From: a virus
Taxonomy: Duplodnaviria > Caudoviricetes
Strand: one strand, 5' to 3'
IMG/VR virus record: IMGVR_UViG_3300037482_000223
Location: 1-37,088 of that record
Length of the DNA: 37,088 bases
The notes beneath the pieces are model-generated. The model was given only the letters and a program-made list of their open reading frames with translations, had not been told where the DNA came from and searched no databases. Position numbers and translations under genes: made by a program. This document shows, piece after piece, positions 7,502-37,088 of this stretch; within the stretch, counting starts at the first letter, position 1, and every line of letters begins with the position of its first letter.

Positions 7502-7867
7502 CTAGCCCACCCCCTCGCCACACGACTCTGCCAGCAGCTCCAGATAGCGGGGGAGTGTCAAGACCACGATCACCGGGCCGTCCTGGGTGCGGCGTTGGTT
7601 GCCGTCGCGGCGAGTCATCTTCCGCCACACCAAGAAAGTGTGGGGGGTCCCTGATTTGAGCATGGCCTTCTCGAGTGCTCGAGGCACGTTGAGGTTCATC
7701 CGGTCTTTCACCTCGCCGACCCATTCGACGTCGGTGAAGATGCGAACGTCTCCCCGGTCGTTGACCGACCCTTCGGCGAGACGTTCGGCGATGAGCCCGT
7801 AATCCTGTGCTGCACGGACGACGAAGGATTCCATGCGGGTTCCGAGGTCTTTGGGGCGGGTTCTCAT
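7502..7867 (-). CDS. Holliday junction resolvase, PD-(D/E)XK type
   Basis: KDLGTRMES…DRGDV…EVKDR pattern typical of actinophage resolvases. Confidence 0.8.
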   Translation of the reverse strand: MRTRPKDLGTRMESFVVRAAQDYGLIAERLAEGSVNDRGDVRIFTDVEWVGEVKDRMNLNVPRALEKAMLKSGTPHTFLVWRKMTRRDGNQRRTQDGPVIVVLTLPRYLELLAESCGEGVG

Positions 7868-9126
7868 CACCAAGGATCCGGTAGGTCGTCGATGTCATCG
7901 ATGGTCAGAATCTCATCTTCTGAGGGGGTGTCGGAAGACCCCTCAGAAGGCCCTCTGGAAGGGTGGGGTGTACTACTAGACACCCCAGACTGTCCGTGTC
8001 GCTGACCAGGGCTTTTAGAGGCCTGTCCGTGGACTGTCCGTGGCTCCTCAGACAGCGGTAGATGTATCTGGTCGGAGCTGGTTCGGCGGTATTTGATAGC
8101 AGCCGAAAGTAGATCATTCGGGGCGGTCTCCCCGTTGTCTTTGAGGATCTGCCGAACGCTGGGTCGACCGAGTTCGGGGTCAACTCCCAGACTGTCGAGT
8201 ACCTTGGCGAGCCGCTTGGTCCCTTCCGGCCAGCTGGCTACCGCCGGGGTGTAGGTGACCGGAAAATGGTTTCTATCGAGCTCGGCGTATTCGGGGACCC
8301 ATCCCATCCGCCGTTTCTCCGCTTTCAGCCGGACTCCTTGGTCTCGTCGTTGTAACCGCCAGATGAGGTCGACGTCGTCACGTTTCGCTGAGGTGCCTCG
8401 AGCTCCCAGAGTGACATCCTTGCCGGCGTGGTCGACCCGGAGGACGGCCCGCCCAGCTGATTTGAGGAGCCGGCCGGTATACAGGTCATAATTGTGGAGG
8501 GTGTCGGCGTCGTTCTCTTTCCCGGCGACGATCCTCATGAAAGTGTCGATGATGACCAGTTGGGCGTCCCGTTCGGCACACAGTTCGGCGAGAGCCTGGC
8601 CTCCTTCGGCGGTGTCGAGGTTGGGGATGGTGGGATGAAGCTGATAGTGGAGGTTGGTCAGGTCGGTTTCCGGGCCGTAGTCCATGTCGTAGAGCCGGTC
8701 CATCAGGTCAGCGTTGGTCATCTCGAAATCCAGGTAGAGGACTGAGATGCCTTTGATGGCAGCCTGGCAGGCGAGCGCTAAGACGAGCTCGGACTTGCCT
8801 TCCCCGGCGGGGGCGTAGAGGGCGATGCTGCGCCCTCGAGGGATGACCGGGTCTATCAGCCAGTCGTGTTCGGTGGTTGTCTGGGTCCAAAATGTTTTCC
8901 AGTCGACGTCGGGATCGTCCGGGTCTGGTCCCCCGGGCAGGTGGATATCGGAGACCAACACGAACCACTCATCGATGTATCCCGGCTCGTAGGCGGCGAG
9001 CCACCCTCCCGCCGTGTCGACGAGAGGATGAGCACCGTTGCTTCTGGCCTTGAGGACGACCTCATAGTCATCTGGCAGTTGTGTGAGGGTCTTGGAGAGG
9101 GTCAAAGGGCATCTACCCACCACCAA
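7867..9126 (-). CDS. AAA_25/RepA-like replicative helicase
   Basis: WLIDPVIPRG, Walker A APAGEGKS, VLYLDFEM, Walker B LVIIDT, VDHAGKD…ARGTSAKRDDVD. Confidence 0.88.
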   Translation of the reverse strand: MVVGRCPLTLSKTLTQLPDDYEVVLKARSNGAHPLVDTAGGWLAAYEPGYIDEWFVLVSDIHLPGGPDPDDPDVDWKTFWTQTTTEHDWLIDPVIPRGRSIALYAPAGEGKSELVLALACQAAIKGISVLYLDFEMTNADLMDRLYDMDYGPETDLTNLHYQLHPTIPNLDTAEGGQALAELCAERDAQLVIIDTFMRIVAGKENDADTLHNYDLYTGRLLKSAGRAVLRVDHAGKDVTLGARGTSAKRDDVDLIWRLQRRDQGVRLKAEKRRMGWVPEYAELDRNHFPVTYTPAVASWPEGTKRLAKVLDSLGVDPELGRPSVRQILKDNGETAPNDLLSAAIKYRRTSSDQIHLPLSEEPRTVHGQASKSPGQRHGQSGVSSSTPHPSRGPSEGSSDTPSEDEILTIDDIDDLPDPW

Positions 9127-9499
9127 GCTCAGGATCGACGTCTGGGACGATCACTGAGGGCTTGAAGATGACTCGGTAGCGGTACACGCTTACATCGGCA
9201 GACTCCAACTGCTCAACAAAATAGGAGACGTTGTCACTTAGCCCGAGGAAGTGCTTCTTGTACTCGTCCGGGCCGATTTTGCAGGTGACCTCCAACTGAT
9301 TGACCTGATCCTCGATCGAACATCGCCCCTCGATCGACAACAAGTAACTGTCGGTGATCCCATTGAAAAACACGACACGGCGCTCAATCTCAAATTGATC
9401 CGCTGCGACCGACAGGTTGCGTGATGCCACTTGGGCGTCGGTATCGCACCCCACCAATATGAGCGCACTCAGACAGAGGATGGTGATGAACCTCCCCAT
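9113..9499 (-). CDS. Phage lipoprotein (widespread beta-sandwich family)
   Basis: Lipobox LVGC; ASRNLS.AADQFEIERRVVFFNGITD…KKHFLGLSDNV signature. Confidence 0.85.
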   Translation of the reverse strand: MGRFITILCLSALILVGCDTDAQVASRNLSVAADQFEIERRVVFFNGITDSYLLSIEGRCSIEDQVNQLEVTCKIGPDEYKKHFLGLSDNVSYFVEQLESADVSVYRYRVIFKPSVIVPDVDPELGGG

Positions 9500-15063: not shown

Positions 15064-15236
15064 TTCGTCTCCTCATCCCGATACTCGCGGGGCAGCCGGT
15101 AATCCCACGACGGATCAAGACGTGGCCGGTAGACACCGAGGGTGCGACGGGGGAAATGTCGCAGGCCGACCCGAGGGAGCTCCGTGGGGGAGAGGAGGGG
15201 ACGAAATCGGCCTGCGAACTTTGTGGTGGTGGTCAT
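15060..15236 (-). CDS. Hypothetical 58 aa Arg/Pro-rich protein
   Basis: Translated by hand (MTTTTKFAGRF…DEETK); 4-bp overlaps at both ends. Confidence 0.5.
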   Translation of the reverse strand: MTTTTKFAGRFRPLLSPTELPRVGLRHFPRRTLGVYRPRLDPSWDYRLPREYRDEETK

Positions 15237-15427
15237 GATGCTTTCTCGTTGCGTTGGGTGGGTGCGGGGAGATCGAGGGTCTTCAACATCTGGTAGACCG
15301 CCGACCGTGTGACGTCTAGTACTCGGGAGATCTCAGCGACCGAAGCCCCGGCGTTGTAGAGGCTGGCGACCTTCGCCCGTCGGGCCTGGATCCCTCGTTC
15401 GCGTGGTGTGAGTGTGTCAGTGTTCAA
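15233..15427 (-). CDS. Cro-like HTH protein
   Basis: LYNAGASVAEISRVLDVTRSAVYQML HTH; divergent from the repressor; TTG start placed downstream of the promoter. Confidence 0.82.
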   Translation of the reverse strand: MNTDTLTPRERGIQARRAKVASLYNAGASVAEISRVLDVTRSAVYQMLKTLDLPAPTQRNEKAS

Positions 15428-15437
15428 GACATTAGAC

Positions 15438-15466
15438 ACTGTAGACCCAACCACTCTGCGTGTCAA
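15438..15466 (-). promoter_or_regulatory. Early (lytic) promoter
   Basis: TTGACA-17 bp-TACAGT. Confidence 0.75.
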
Positions 15467-15481
15467 GTATCAAGTCCACTC

Positions 15482-15511
15482 TTGACATGAACACTTGAAG
15501 CCCTGTATCTT
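15482..15511 (+). promoter_or_regulatory. Repressor promoter
   Basis: TTGACA-18 bp-TATCTT; AAGGAGG RBS at about 15543-15549. Confidence 0.6.
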
Positions 15512-15556: not shown

Positions 15557-15856
15557 ATGAGTGAACAACTCGCCAAGGCGCTGCAGGAGAGACTGGGAGA
15601 CCGAAGCCTCAGAGCGTTAGCACGGGACCTGGGTGTTGCAGTAGGCACCGCCGAAGGCTGGCTCAAAGGGTGGCGGACACCAGACATCAAGCACATCTCC
15701 CGACTGGCTGTCTATCTTGGCGTCGACCCGAGCGTCATCGTCGACTGGGAGATAGCTGCAAGCGTGACTTTACATAACGTGGATTCAGGACCCTGGCTAC
15801 CACTCCGGGTCGTCCGACCTACAGACAACCGTCCTTATGCCAGCCAGGCTGCCTGA
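15557..15856 (+). CDS. XRE-family HTH immunity repressor with C-terminal ssrA-like tag
   Basis: SLRALARDLGVAVGTAEGWLKGWRTP…LAVYLGV HTH_3 pattern; C-terminus TDNRPYASQAA. Confidence 0.88.
   Translation: MSEQLAKALQERLGDRSLRALARDLGVAVGTAEGWLKGWRTPDIKHISRLAVYLGVDPSVIVDWEIAASVTLHNVDSGPWLPLRVVRPTDNRPYASQAA
15767..15794 (-). other. dif-like site 1 (candidate attP), good XerD arm
   Basis: Minus strand AGGGTCCTGAA-TCCACG-TTATGTAAAGT; right arm matches E. coli dif XerD arm TTATGTTAAAT at 9/11. Confidence 0.55.
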
Positions 15857-15879
15857 GCCGGGAGGGAAGGAGTCATGCG

Positions 15880-16176
15880 ATGTCATGGTCATCATTCCAC
15901 CGGGGGGACTATCAGAGGATGCGCCGCAATCTCACCGTAGCCCTGTTGGAGGCTGAGGCGATGGAGCCTCGGATCCAGCTTGCTTTCTCTCGAGGGCTGG
16001 TACCGGCCGAGCTGACCGCCAAGATGAGCTTGATCCGTCTCCTGTTGGAACGTGCCGACTTGTTGACCCGCAACGGGCTCGACGTCGCCATCGCGGATAC
16101 CCGCCTCTATTACACCGTCTACGCTGACACCACCTATTCAGACTCAGCGTTAGCCAACAGAGGGAGAGTCGCATGA
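15880..16176 (+). CDS. Hypothetical helical protein co-transcribed with the repressor
   Basis: 98 aa, AAGGAG upstream. Confidence 0.7.
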   Translation: MSWSSFHRGDYQRMRRNLTVALLEAEAMEPRIQLAFSRGLVPAELTAKMSLIRLLLERADLLTRNGLDVAIADTRLYYTVYADTTYSDSALANRGRVA

Positions 16177-16430: not shown

Positions 16431-16470
16431 AAAAGACCCGCCACCATCCTTAACGGACAGTGACGGGTCT
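16431..16470 (-). terminator. Intrinsic terminator of the late operon
   Basis: AGACCCG…CGGGTCT stem followed by a T run on the minus strand, at the convergence point. Confidence 0.6.
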
Positions 16471-16488
16471 CGGCTGTAGAAGATCAGT

Positions 16489-28478: not shown

Positions 28479-30239
28479 TTACCAGGGTGGCGGGTCGTTA
28501 GGGCCGAGCGGCGAATACGCCACACCCGCCGACGTGTAGGCGACGGGGGCGGGAGCCCAGAAGGTGAGAGCGGTCCTCGTCCCGCTCGCGGTCGATGTCT
28601 GATCTTCTTGGGTGACCGTGGCCGACCCGGTGAACGTGGGCAGGGAGAACGTGCCCATGCCCAAACCGGTTTGGGCGTCCTGGAAGGCTGCAAGCGTACC
28701 GGTGAAGGCGGGAGCGGTGAACGATCCTGAAGCGGCCGCAGTGTCGTCTTGCTGAGTCGGAGCGGCGGACCCGGTTACCGGGCCAGGAGTGAACGTGCCC
28801 GAAGCCGTCGACGTGTCGTCTTCTTGGATTGGTGAGCCGACACCGACTTTGGCGTCTGAGGTGAACGTGCCGGTCGCCGACCCCGTGTCGGATTGTTGGG
28901 TGACGGCTGCGCTACCGGTGAACGTTCCCGAAGTGAACGTGCCGGAGGCGGTCGAGGTTTGATCCGCCTGGGTCGGGATGCCGGAACCGGTGACGGTCGG
29001 GGCGACGAACGTACCCGACGCTGTTGAAGTGTTGTCGTCTTGTGTGGCGGCAGCAGACCCTGTGAGAGTCGGATTCGTGAACGTGCCGGTCGCAGTTGAA
29101 GTGTCGTCGGCTTGAGTTGGGGAGCCACTGCCGGTGAACGACCCAGCGACGATGATCTGGACGACTTCTGATCCGGACGTCCAGGTTCCCGACCAGCCGA
29201 ACACCTGGTAGTCGTAGTCGTTTTCAGCCGGCCCGACGTCAGTGTACAGGTTGGGAACCGTGCGAGCCAGCGGTGTGTCAACGTCGGGATCGAATACTGC
29301 ACCGGTCTGGGGTGTGCGGCGGAACACCGCGTAGTCCCAGCGGACCCCCGACGCTGTCGACGTGTCGGCTTGCTGTGTTGGGCTTGCGGTTCCGGTGAAC
29401 GTCGGCGGGGTGAAGGCGCCGGAGGCTGTCGAAGTGTCCGCGGCCTGTGTAGGGCTTGCCGACCCGGTGAAGACGGGAGCGGTGAAAGATCCCGAGGCGG
29501 TGGAGGTGTCGTCTTCTTCTACTGCGACAGCGGATCCGGTGAGGGTCGGATTGGTGAAGGTGCCCGACGCTATGGAAGTATCCGCTTCTTGGGTCGAACT
29601 GGCTGAGCCGATGAACGTCGGGGGAGTGAACGTACCCGACACTGCACTCGTGTCGTCTTCTTGAGTAGGAGAGGCAGAGCCAGTGAACGTCGGGGGGGCA
29701 GCCTCCCCATCCCAGATCGACCTGCCAGGGTCAGCACCAGGATCATCAACTTCGATAGTGATGGTCTGGTTGCCGTGTCCTCCGGTAGCTGTACGTTGAG
29801 CAGCAATCAAACACTCGAAACGGTCGAGAGTGGCACCTGCTGCTGAGTCCCATGCACCAGTAGTAGCGACTTTCAGCCCTGTTCCAGAAAACGCTGATTC
29901 AATTTGGGCACGGGTGTCTAAATCAGAGGTAAGGCCATTACCAACCCGAGCAAAATGCCCTGCCGACCCCCCAAGAGTGAGCAGGCCATACACCATGTCG
30001 GCACCGGCTGCGGTGCAGTCGATGACACACTGGAAATCGCCAGACTCCCAATCAGCACTACCGGGTTCCCCCGAAACCGTATTGAATAAGTAGGCGAGAG
30101 TATCAGCACCATCAGCATGGTTAGCTGAAACCAAAGTGGTAACCGACGAACCTTGGGTTAGAGACTGCTCAACCTCATGAGTGGCCGCATGAACCGAACT
30201 GGCGAGAGTGGTTGAACGGTGGTAGTAGGTTTTCGCCAT
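28479..30239 (-). CDS. Thr/Ser-rich fibre protein with 13 copies of a 24 aa repeat
   Basis: FTGSASPTQxDDTSTASGTFTxPT repeated 5 + 8 times. Confidence 0.85.
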   Translation of the reverse strand: MAKTYYHRSTTLASSVHAATHEVEQSLTQGSSVTTLVSANHADGADTLAYLFNTVSGEPGSADWESGDFQCVIDCTAAGADMVYGLLTLGGSAGHFARVGNGLTSDLDTRAQIESAFSGTGLKVATTGAWDSAAGATLDRFECLIAAQRTATGGHGNQTITIEVDDPGADPGRSIWDGEAAPPTFTGSASPTQEDDTSAVSGTFTPPTFIGSASSTQEADTSIASGTFTNPTLTGSAVAVEEDDTSTASGSFTAPVFTGSASPTQAADTSTASGAFTPPTFTGTASPTQQADTSTASGVRWDYAVFRRTPQTGAVFDPDVDTPLARTVPNLYTDVGPAENDYDYQVFGWSGTWTSGSEVVQIIVAGSFTGSGSPTQADDTSTATGTFTNPTLTGSAAATQDDNTSTASGTFVAPTVTGSGIPTQADQTSTASGTFTSGTFTGSAAVTQQSDTGSATGTFTSDAKVGVGSPIQEDDTSTASGTFTPGPVTGSAAPTQQDDTAAASGSFTAPAFTGTLAAFQDAQTGLGMGTFSLPTFTGSATVTQEDQTSTASGTRTALTFWAPAPVAYTSAGVAYSPLGPNDPPPW

Positions 30240-30800
30240 TTACCCGACCACCCGACCGTCAACAACGTTCCCTTCGGGTACCCCTTCAGTCCATTCCCTC
30301 CACCCCTTTAAACTTCGCTCTTCAACGGTGCTAGCAAAGTCAACATCAGACATCCAAATTCCGTGACGGACCAGTGACGAATCTGGTGGAACGAACTCGG
30401 CCCAAGGTTCCACAACTCTATCCGGTGAAGATTCGATTGACAGTCCCGACCCGACGTAGACCACCTGGCTCTGTCTGGTGTTATACAGCCCTCCCACCGT
30501 CTCGTCGGGGGCCAAGGTGAGGAACGTCCACTCAGCGGCATAGAACTCAGTCTCTGCCCGGTCGGTCAGATCATCGTTCCAGACTGTCACCTTGGCTCCG
30601 TCAGGAATGTCTTCCACCGCATAATGGTCGGCCTCGAAAGACACCCCTTGAACGTTGATGGCGTTGACCCAGCCAGGCGTCGAGTCGGCACCGACTTCCA
30701 AATTAGGCAAAACACGGAAAGGTAAGGAAGCCCAATCTACCGAGTCAATTTCCTGCCAATCGGAGGGTGGGACTGTTGCCCATTGATAGAGAATCTTCAT
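30240..30800 (-). CDS. Hypothetical Trp/acidic virion-module protein (186 aa)
   Basis: TAATG coupling upstream; its stop abuts the next ATG. Confidence 0.75.
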   Translation of the reverse strand: MKILYQWATVPPSDWQEIDSVDWASLPFRVLPNLEVGADSTPGWVNAINVQGVSFEADHYAVEDIPDGAKVTVWNDDLTDRAETEFYAAEWTFLTLAPDETVGGLYNTRQSQVVYVGSGLSIESSPDRVVEPWAEFVPPDSSLVRHGIWMSDVDFASTVEERSLKGWREWTEGVPEGNVVDGRVVG

Positions 30801-32194
30801 TAGAAGCTGGCATCCCACGTCAGGTCGACATCCGCACCGGTTTGGACGGCAGCAAGGTTGGCCGGGTCGAAGCCGATCCCGTAGGTGGTGGCTATGTAAT
30901 CATCGAGGTTGGCTCGCTCGGTGGAGTCCAGGGCTTTGTGCCAGGAGGCAGCCAAGGCAACATCGCCACCGAAGTTGCCAGCAGTGATCTCGCCCATGTA
31001 AATGTCGTCGTAATCCAGCGTTCCGCCCTTGGCAGCCGTGGCTACCTGGACTCCGTTGTGGTAAAAGACCACATCGGCCCCGTCCCAGACGATGAGCAGA
31101 AAGGCATCTTGGGTGGTGTCCACTCCTGATGTGGCTAATTGGATGTCGCCAGCCTCCGTGGTCCTGACGAACGTTCCCCACTCCGACGCCGTCTCCCCCT
31201 CGGTAAAAGCAAATATCCAATCGAAGGCGGCTCCTTCGAGACCAAACGGCCAAGTGCGCGAGGTTCCCTCGGCGGTAGCTCGACACACGACTGCTATTGA
31301 GACTTCCGTCAGACCAGAAGCAATGAAGGTTTCGTCTCTGCGGCGAAAATCGTCTACCCCGTCGAAACGATAGACCGCGTGACCGTTCAACTCATTGGTT
31401 TCCCAGGTAGGCTGGGTGCCGCCGATATTGAGATGCCAGCCATTACCAGACTGGTCGGTGACGACAGCAACCGGATCGCCATCGACTAGCCCAGTGTGGT
31501 CTTTAGCTTCGTAGCGATTTGCGAGACTTGCGGTGGGAAAACCGGTGAACGTGCCGCTCGCGGTGGGTGTGTCGTCGGCTTGGGTGGGTGAGGCCGTCCC
31601 GGTGAACGACGCAGCCCCGAGGTCTCCACCCTCGAAGTCGTCGATGGTGTTGGTATGCGAGACGAGCAGGCCGGTTCGTAGCTGCCCGCTGAACGTGGTA
31701 TCGGTGGTAGGGCCGACCACGGACACGTTGTTAGCGAAGCCTTCCAACTGGTCGCCGTTGACATCTAAGCGGAGAACGACACCGTTCCCGGGAGCGGCTG
31801 CATCGACCGAGGCGATCTGGGCGAGCGTGCCGTTGGTGACTTTGAAGAGCCGGTAGGTGGAAGTGGTGGTGTTGCGTACCAGGAAGAGATACCCGGAGTC
31901 CGCCGCCGGATCGAAACGGACTATGATCCCAACAGTGTTGGTGGTCCCGGCCCAGGTGACCACCGTGACCTCCGCGGAATGGTCGTCGGAGGCCAGGTCC
32001 GATTCAGCTCGGTAACGCAGGTTGTTGACGCTGGAGGTGCCTACGGCGGTGTCGGAGGCTTCTAGGACCGTAATATTTTGGCCGGCACTTCCGAAGGTTT
32101 TGGTCCACGAGTGCCCGCCGTTCGGCCCGGTTGCCGTGTGGTCCTGGAGAAGCGTGTTGGTGGCTTCAACGAACGTGTCGCCGATCGTCGCCAT
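30800..32194 (-). CDS. Two-domain lectin/LamG-like fibre protein
   Basis: ConA-like N-terminal domain, one 24 aa repeat, then WxDQSGNG-type LamG domain (TDQSGNG…NGH…FDGVDD). Confidence 0.8.
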   Translation of the reverse strand: MATIGDTFVEATNTLLQDHTATGPNGGHSWTKTFGSAGQNITVLEASDTAVGTSSVNNLRYRAESDLASDDHSAEVTVVTWAGTTNTVGIIVRFDPAADSGYLFLVRNTTTSTYRLFKVTNGTLAQIASVDAAAPGNGVVLRLDVNGDQLEGFANNVSVVGPTTDTTFSGQLRTGLLVSHTNTIDDFEGGDLGAASFTGTASPTQADDTPTASGTFTGFPTASLANRYEAKDHTGLVDGDPVAVVTDQSGNGWHLNIGGTQPTWETNELNGHAVYRFDGVDDFRRRDETFIASGLTEVSIAVVCRATAEGTSRTWPFGLEGAAFDWIFAFTEGETASEWGTFVRTTEAGDIQLATSGVDTTQDAFLLIVWDGADVVFYHNGVQVATAAKGGTLDYDDIYMGEITAGNFGGDVALAASWHKALDSTERANLDDYIATTYGIGFDPANLAAVQTGADVDLTWDASF

Positions 32195-36695: not shown

Positions 36696-37088
36696 TCAAA
36701 CCTCGCTTCCATCCAGTGTGGCTCCGGTGAGAGCCTGGGCGGCCACCGTATCCAACAACCGTTCAGCGGCTTGGAACTGCTCAGACGTGACCAGTCCGGC
36801 CTCTTTGAGTTTCACCCAGGCTTCGGCACGTTCGTTGAACGCCGGTCTCGAATACTCGTCACGATTCAACTCGACCGCCTGGCCGCGGGGGAGCGCCCAA
36901 TTTGATAATGCCTCCATGAGACTGTTCGTGTAAGGCCGCAACGCCGAACGGTCGTGGTAGTCGAACAGTTGCGACACGTTCGCGTAGGTCATCGAATCGC
37001 CCGACCCGCCAGTAACAGGAAGCCCCGCCAGAAACGGGGGGACCCCGAGAAGCTGCGCGATGCGGGATTCAGTGAACTGGGACACCTC
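36696..37088 (-). CDS. Portal protein, 3' part (joined to 1-958)
   Basis: IAQLLGVPP…TYANV…LRPY…E.ALS…GLVTSEQ. Confidence 0.92.
   Translation of the reverse strand, partial: EVSQFTESRIAQLLGVPPFLAGLPVTGGSGDSMTYANVSQLFDYHDRSALRPYTNSLMEALSNWALPRGQAVELNRDEYSRPAFNERAEAWVKLKEAGLVTSEQFQAAERLLDTVAAQALTGATLDGSEV
36962..37088. repeat. Terminal direct repeat, identical to 1-127
   Basis: Exact match. Confidence 0.95.

Follow-up and report, generated by a model that had tools for sequence, protein, structure and literature searches.

How could a tailed phage with a repressor gene and no integrase gene become a prophage, and what might an attachment site be doing inside the repressor gene itself? These questions are raised by the virus record IMGVR_UViG_3300037482_000223 (Duplodnaviria; Caudoviricetes), the whole 37,088-nt stretch of which is referred to below as the window. 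A previous sequence-only reading proposed that a dif-like site lies within the repressor gene, upstream of an ssrA-like degron, and that recombination by the host XerCD would both integrate the genome and replace the degron.

Phage Genome and Repressor/Cro Switch

The window ends with a 127-bp terminal repeat (36962..37088, unstranded), a copy of bases 1-127, indicating that the record is circular; IMG/VR classes it under direct terminal repeats, with a CheckV estimate of 54% completeness. PHROG and Pfam scans reveal a siphovirus-like 37-kb genome encoding terminase, portal, capsid, tape measure, amidase and holin. In the same scans, the 83 window ORFs gave 0 matches to integrase or Par genes, and six-frame searches of the window with PF00589, PF00239, PF07508 and PF13614 found no recombinase or ParA, while the two integrases of record G409, the positive control, were detected. 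The absence of matches and the terminal repeat bear out the earlier claim of a complete genome with no recognisable recombinase or partition gene. Other genes of note in this integrase-free genome are one annotated as RDF (9113-9499; phrog_478, PF25682) and one for a RusA-like resolvase (7502-7873), and 72-bp (24-aa) repeats occur within two large unannotated ORFs of the structural region (28571-31620).

The repressor gene (15557..15856, + strand) encodes 99 aa, with an HTH_3/Cro-C1 domain at residues 14-60, followed by the att site and a tail ending in AA, as defined by Pfam and PHROG scans and by 43 homologues. Its translation ends in TDNRPYASQAA, as previously described. A Cro-like HTH gene (15233..15466, − strand; HTH_23, E 4.8e-7), divergent from the repressor, is the first of a leftward lytic operon and probably starts a few codons later than 15466. 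Two divergent promoter-like sites separate the repressor from this gene and its operon, one for the lytic operon (15438..15466, − strand) and one for the repressor operon (15482..15511, + strand), each a 10/12 match to a sigma-70-like consensus only. A terminator-like hairpin of 17 pairs (16433..16471, − strand) lies between the repressor operon and the convergent lysis genes.

A dif-Type Site Shared with Acidimicrobiia

The motif ACTTTACATAA begins at 15767, codon 71 of the repressor, and is followed by a TTA codon, the rarest Leu codon of the phage (32 of 821 Leu codons in 40 likely window genes). Its 9/11 match to the E. coli XerD arm, on which the sequence-only reading relied, is correct as a count but carries little evidential weight, because a match of equal quality arises in 25 of 100 shuffles. 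The likeness to the E. coli arm is thus weak by itself, and the identification of the site depends on the dif of the host.

A scan of GTDB for the 17-bp core retrieved, from 43/64 parts of the collection, 120 loci with 121 matches, and 97 distinct full-form sites of the form NNNNCC[C/G]ATAA TCCACG TTATGT[C/A/T]AAGT. By hand count, ~69/120 of the records are titled Acidimicrobiia. The site is single copy in 4/5 genomes tested, sits opposite dnaA in two closed chromosomes, at a distance of 49.8% and 51.0% of the chromosome length, and is accompanied by XerC and XerD homologues in 5/5 site-bearing genomes. We take this conserved site as the dif of an Acidimicrobiia group, which is likely to be the host group of the phage. 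Hence, a dif is defined for an uncultured group of Acidimicrobiia, and these phages gain a candidate host group. Several records (L011, L018, L025, L040, L064 and others) are titled Acidobacteriota or Kiloniellales yet carry the Acidimicrobiia-type dif, and their titles may be wrong. In one host genome (L069:10001-10451), another site, its XerC arm degenerate, lies 423 bp from the canonical dif in the same orientation, and an inverted partial copy is present as well, possibly the scar of a dif-integrated element.

Positions 15767-15785 of the window, comprising the XerD arm and the central hexamer, are identical over 19 bp to the Acidimicrobiia dif with an A-variant arm, which occurs in 30/97 distinct sites; by chance, a 19-mer identity would be expected ~1e-7 times per genome. 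On the − strand, the site divides into a predicted XerD-binding arm (15767..15777) identical to the A-variant host arm, a central hexamer TCCACG (15778..15783) identical to the host dif centre, and a predicted degenerate XerC-binding arm (15784..15794), which keeps the inner AA and is without the host CCCATAA. The naming of the arms follows the E. coli layout. The comparison agrees with the 11-6-11 arrangement and degenerate XerC arm described earlier, and the 19-bp identity to a real host dif upholds the claim of a dif-type attachment site: from its sequence, we are confident that the phage site represents a dif-type attP.

Conservation of the Site at the DNA Level

A second phage, found via the 98-aa gene downstream of the repressor (ORF98), contains the same 17-bp core within an unrelated repressor and in another frame. 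Scans of metagenome and viral DNA with an ORF98 alignment yielded 11 loci, 10 of which have exactly one dif-like site in 58 kb, within the repressor ORF that lies upstream (in L262, this ORF is truncated where the contig starts); the exception is L259. The site-bearing repressors belong to five HTH families, with identities of about 22-30% in longer alignments, and the site is read in four frame/orientation combinations. In antisense sites, the XerD arm and the centre are retained, in one frame in the window, L256 and L258 and in another in L002, L261 and L264; in sense sites, it is the XerC arm that is retained with the centre, in one frame in L257 and in another in L260, L262, L263 and L265. 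The repressors of the window and L257 are 77% identical and carry the site in opposite orientations. In 10/10 dif-bearing loci, the host-like arm is the one nearer the HTH domain and the degenerate arm the one nearer the tail.

Because the same core is carried by five HTH families in four frame/orientation combinations, conservation acts at the DNA level. Conservation beyond amino-acid constraint, proposed earlier as a check, therefore held across frames, orientations and unrelated repressors. The independent cases are reduced to approximately seven, since L256 has the same sequence as the window, L258 and L264 count as near-duplicates, and 6/9 metagenome contigs share two assembly prefixes. 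The sites of L002, L262 and L265 are set among tail and lysis genes, indicating that the relatives are tailed phages. In L002 (G406, 41 kb), the second circular relative, six-frame searches found no integrase or ParA, with one weak sub-cut-off resolvase match only.

At the protein level only, 14/43 repressor homologues spell the dif translation after the HTH domain, and 16/43 have a G-V-Y-L-S-type motif in its place (P0012, P0013, P0017, P0019-P0024 and others). Four of the 14 (P0010, P0014-16) appear to conserve the centre and the XerD arm on the tail side; therefore, the arm rule may have exceptions. It is also worth noting that P0089, of the dif type, and P0090, of the G-V-Y-L-S type, have near-identical HTH domains, suggesting that att-tail modules have been swapped; the poorly resolved repressor tree was used only for this point. 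Two further loci, L001 and L006, were set aside as false repressor matches. The same 17-bp core also occurs (L003:5374-5390) in G408, an unrelated, integrase-free tailed actinophage with a circular 15.7-kb genome, where it lies between a Cro-like gene and lysis genes, outside any evident repressor ORF.

The Repressor Tail and Its Predicted Exchange

The 3′ tail that integration is predicted to detach (15795..15856, + strand) contains an R-P-[IT]-[DE] motif and the terminal AA. Among the 43 repressor homologues, 30 end in AA and 7 in VA, including all 14 with dif-translation tails and most of those with the G-V-Y-L-S-type motif, whereas such ends occur in 3/51 window proteins (the repressor, ORF98 and the capsid). 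With 37/43 homologues ending in AA or VA, the -AA end stands as a conserved trait of the repressor family, and the tail is a probable Clp degron, judging from its sequence. The tmRNA tags of the hosts (AEDNFALAA and similar, 5/5 genomes) have only the final AA in common with the repressor tail. The R-P-[IT]-[DE] motif, often preceded by W, is common to dif-bearing, mutually unrelated repressors. Derivation of the tail motif from a tRNA was weighed by visual inspection and discarded.

To predict the tail after integration, 97 host dif flanks were translated in the frame of the window repressor. The predicted prophage repressor reads TLHNVDYG and continues into host DNA for a median of 41 aa from N74 (97 flanks). 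A stop is encountered within 10 aa in 12/97 and within 26 aa in 32/97, 18/97 have no stop within 300 bp, and only 1/97 of the predicted tails ends in AA or VA. For the sense PIIH frame, the predicted host tail has a median length of 8 aa. The sequence-only reading had the prophage repressor ending in …TLHN, which these translations contradict: because the frame continues through NVDYG into host DNA, the repressor would be re-tailed rather than ended at this point. No host-tailed form was found among the 43 homologues or 20 clusters. P0097, P0101, P0107 and P0116 were rejected as such forms, as they are longer by an N-terminal extension (P0104 and P0111 were outside this check).

The ORF98 Protein

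Immediately downstream, ORF98 (15880..16176, + strand) encodes a 98-aa protein ending in RVA, delineated by structure prediction and homologue searches. It is predicted to form a long helical hairpin (pLDDT 79.5), for which Foldseek returned generic hairpin matches only, none significant. No Pfam or PHROG family, GenBank phage match or Atlas match at or above 0.9 was found. Among its 50 homologues, 40 have an Ala C-terminus. ORF98 occupies the position of the integrase in BPs-type switches and, because it is itself Ala-tailed, is the best candidate for a short-lived integration helper. Its presence in five non-dif loci, namely four GTDB genomes away from dif and L259, counts against a dif-specific role. 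One of these loci, a 10-kb element (L266:9306-19506, G183), is bounded by a 43-bp tRNA-Thr repeat, has an ORF98 homologue at its far junction and encodes its own 296-aa Xer-like integrase, and L259 includes the end of an ORF judged by eye to be tyrosine-recombinase-like.

Searches for an Integrated Copy

Prophages with a homologous repressor at chromosomal dif, which the earlier reading expected, did not appear in GTDB flanks, genome samples or IMG/VR scans. None was present at dif in 80 GTDB loci with flanks of up to 10 kb, and the repressor profile matched 0/401 genomes. The ORF98 profile matched 4/401, 0/7, 4/331 and 2/391 genomes in overlapping samples (the same four genomes), none beside dif. 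A sense-type junction pattern gave 4 matches in 401 genomes, none in a repressor-like ORF, and 14-mer pattern scans of IMG/VR provided no new case beyond L265, the remaining matches being apparently due to chance.

Chimeric phage-host reads at 15767-15794 had also been suggested as a check, with an ambiguous outcome. Contigs of samples X1 and X2 are continuous across the site, while one X4 contig diverges from the phage precisely at 15767, where 18 letters of foreign sequence are attached. By depth arithmetic, this contig covers at most ~38 bp, and its end was not recovered a second time. The X4 end was not counted, because it could stem from an attR, from an unoccupied host dif or from a different phage. 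Samples X4-X6 contain close variants in which window positions 15710-15801 are replaced, and loose contig ends in X5 and X6 show a sense-orientation site.

Proposed Mechanism and Alternatives

From the sequences, integration of the phage through the host Xer system appears highly probable. The fuller proposal, that XerCD recombination at dif integrates the phage and swaps the probable AA degron for host sequence, thereby stabilising the repressor, is the explanation we favour, and we consider it likely. Upon infection, the full-length repressor would be degraded by a Clp protease, making lytic growth the default. A crossover inside the identical hexamer would produce an attL composed of the phage XerD arm, the centre and the host XerC arm, i.e., a perfect dif, so that chromosome dimer resolution would survive. 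The attR would keep the degenerate arm, the AA tail and a promoterless ORF98, and its poor recombination would stabilise the prophage, as has been proposed for TLC and the gonococcal island. As computed from the host flanks, the new repressor would run through TLHNVDYG into host DNA and almost never end in AA or VA. ORF98 would be separated from the repressor promoter and might be a short-lived helper of integration, which is the weakest step. With a degenerate-XerC-arm attP, strand exchange might begin with XerD, the junction then being resolved by XerC, by replication or perhaps by the phage RusA-like protein, which is a guess. It counts against the model that, in the window frame, most hosts give no stop at the junction.

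A more ambitious version would have tailed Acidimicrobiia phages replace the BPs-type integrase with XerCD, dimer resolution deciding between lysis and lysogeny by stripping the degron from any repressor fused to the attP-tail-ORF98 module, and ORF98 being a new protease-timed Xer activator, unrelated to XafT, that enables the use of an attP with a degenerate XerC arm. This version is tentative and, on balance, doubtful.

XerCD could also integrate the phage at dif while the tail is no degron, the switch depending on loss of an R-P-I-[DE] interaction motif or on separation of ORF98 from the repressor promoter alone. Such an explanation draws on the limited likeness between the tail and host ssrA tags, confined to the last two residues, on the retention of R-P-[IT]-[DE] across unrelated repressors, and on XacF1 ORF12, a split regulator that affects prophage stability without any proposed degron. 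The AA/VA ends are nevertheless kept in 37/43 homologues with otherwise unalignable tails, which agrees with the two-alanine signature of the BPs type, and we regard a tail that is no degron as unlikely. The lack of an integrated copy in all searches would be expected if the site, in the manner of cer and pdif, resolved dimers of a prophage maintained outside the chromosome like a plasmid, with no stable integration. However, MAGs frequently lose prophages, and no ParA was found. The site always has one degenerate arm and a centre that matches chromosomal dif exactly, which fits recombination with the chromosome, and the position of the site, always between HTH and tail, is sensible only if recombination parts them; maintenance as a plasmid is consequently quite unlikely. 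The degeneracy of half of the site, together with the several other tyrosine recombinases encoded by host genomes, would be compatible with another such enzyme acting in trans, or with a relic or Xer-binding roadblock at which no recombination occurs. A perfect centre with one perfect arm, in both orientations and in five repressor families, is instead the pattern of an active Xer substrate, and makes this last explanation very unlikely.

Comparison with Known Systems

If host XerCD does integrate these phages and exchange the repressor tail, Xer hijacking would be extended to tailed phages of Actinomycetota, and the lysis-lysogeny decision would be tied to a host cell-cycle recombinase by a switch consisting of no more than a repressor and a Cro-like gene, perhaps with one helper. 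Integrase-based predictors would class such phages as lytic. In addition, the natural attP series, in which either arm can be degenerate, is a ready test set for the order of Xer strand exchange.

Integration-dependent immunity is described for BPs, Brujita, Charlie and the M. abscessus MabN/MabB prophages, where two C-terminal alanines are a signature of the repressors and the integrase is tagged too (PMC3694055, PMC9934374). The two systems share a cro gene divergent from the repressor, an attP inside the repressor ORF, C-terminal AA beyond attP, an Ala-tailed next gene and a single core read in different frames by different repressors. Unlike in the BPs type, no phage tyrosine integrase lies beside the repressor, its place being taken by ORF98, and the target is dif instead of a tRNA gene. 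Furthermore, the host stop at or near attL shortens BPs-type repressors, whereas here, in the window frame, a stop near the junction is host-dependent.

Xer-exploiting elements (IMEXs) offer a second comparison. Degenerate arms are reported to hinder FtsK-driven excision of TLC-phi and the gonococcal-island IMEXs (PMC6744903, PMC9226527). These elements, the enterogokushoviruses (PMC7062461) and the PM2-like dif prophage phiCAH24 (bioRxiv 10.64898/2026.02.19.706829) resemble the present phage in being integrase-free with an 11-6-11 attP and one degenerate arm, and none of them is a tailed phage. Enterogokushovirus dif motifs are mostly non-coding (PMC7062461), while the site described here is coding. 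Known Xer-exploiting elements such as TLC have a degenerate XerD arm, whereas the window has an intact XerD arm and a degenerate XerC arm, which counts against the model; the sense-type relatives (L257, L260, L262, L263 and L265) do have a TLC-like degenerate XerD arm. No match to DUF3653/XafT, the TLC-type activator, was found among the 83 window ORFs, and a CTX-type ssDNA-hairpin attP was rejected, since the predicted folding of 15730-15860 does not exceed that of shuffled sequences (z 0.82). The switch resembles the BPs type and the IMEXs, yet it departs from BPs in having no integrase and from TLC and CTX in their defining features.

Full-text searches of mainly open literature revealed neither a tailed phage whose repressor contains a dif attP nor the removal of a degron by Xer. 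The novelty claimed by the sequence-only reading thus appears to hold for the combination in a tailed phage but not for a dif attP inside a regulator, which has already been described in filamentous phages. In XacF1/Cf1c, a dif-like attP lies inside ORF12, a putative repressor gene, and integration by the host XerCD splits the gene (PMC5666396, PMC4076744). RSS0 ORF13 is similarly described as a putative repressor gene with a dif-like attP, split upon integration by the host XerCD (PMC4471427). Both have a dif-type attP within a regulator gene, like the present phage, and both are ssDNA filamentous phages of Proteobacteria for which no degron is proposed in the texts cited. By comparison, the phage analysed here is a 37-kb tailed dsDNA phage of actinobacteria, with a conserved AA tail and two orientations of the site.
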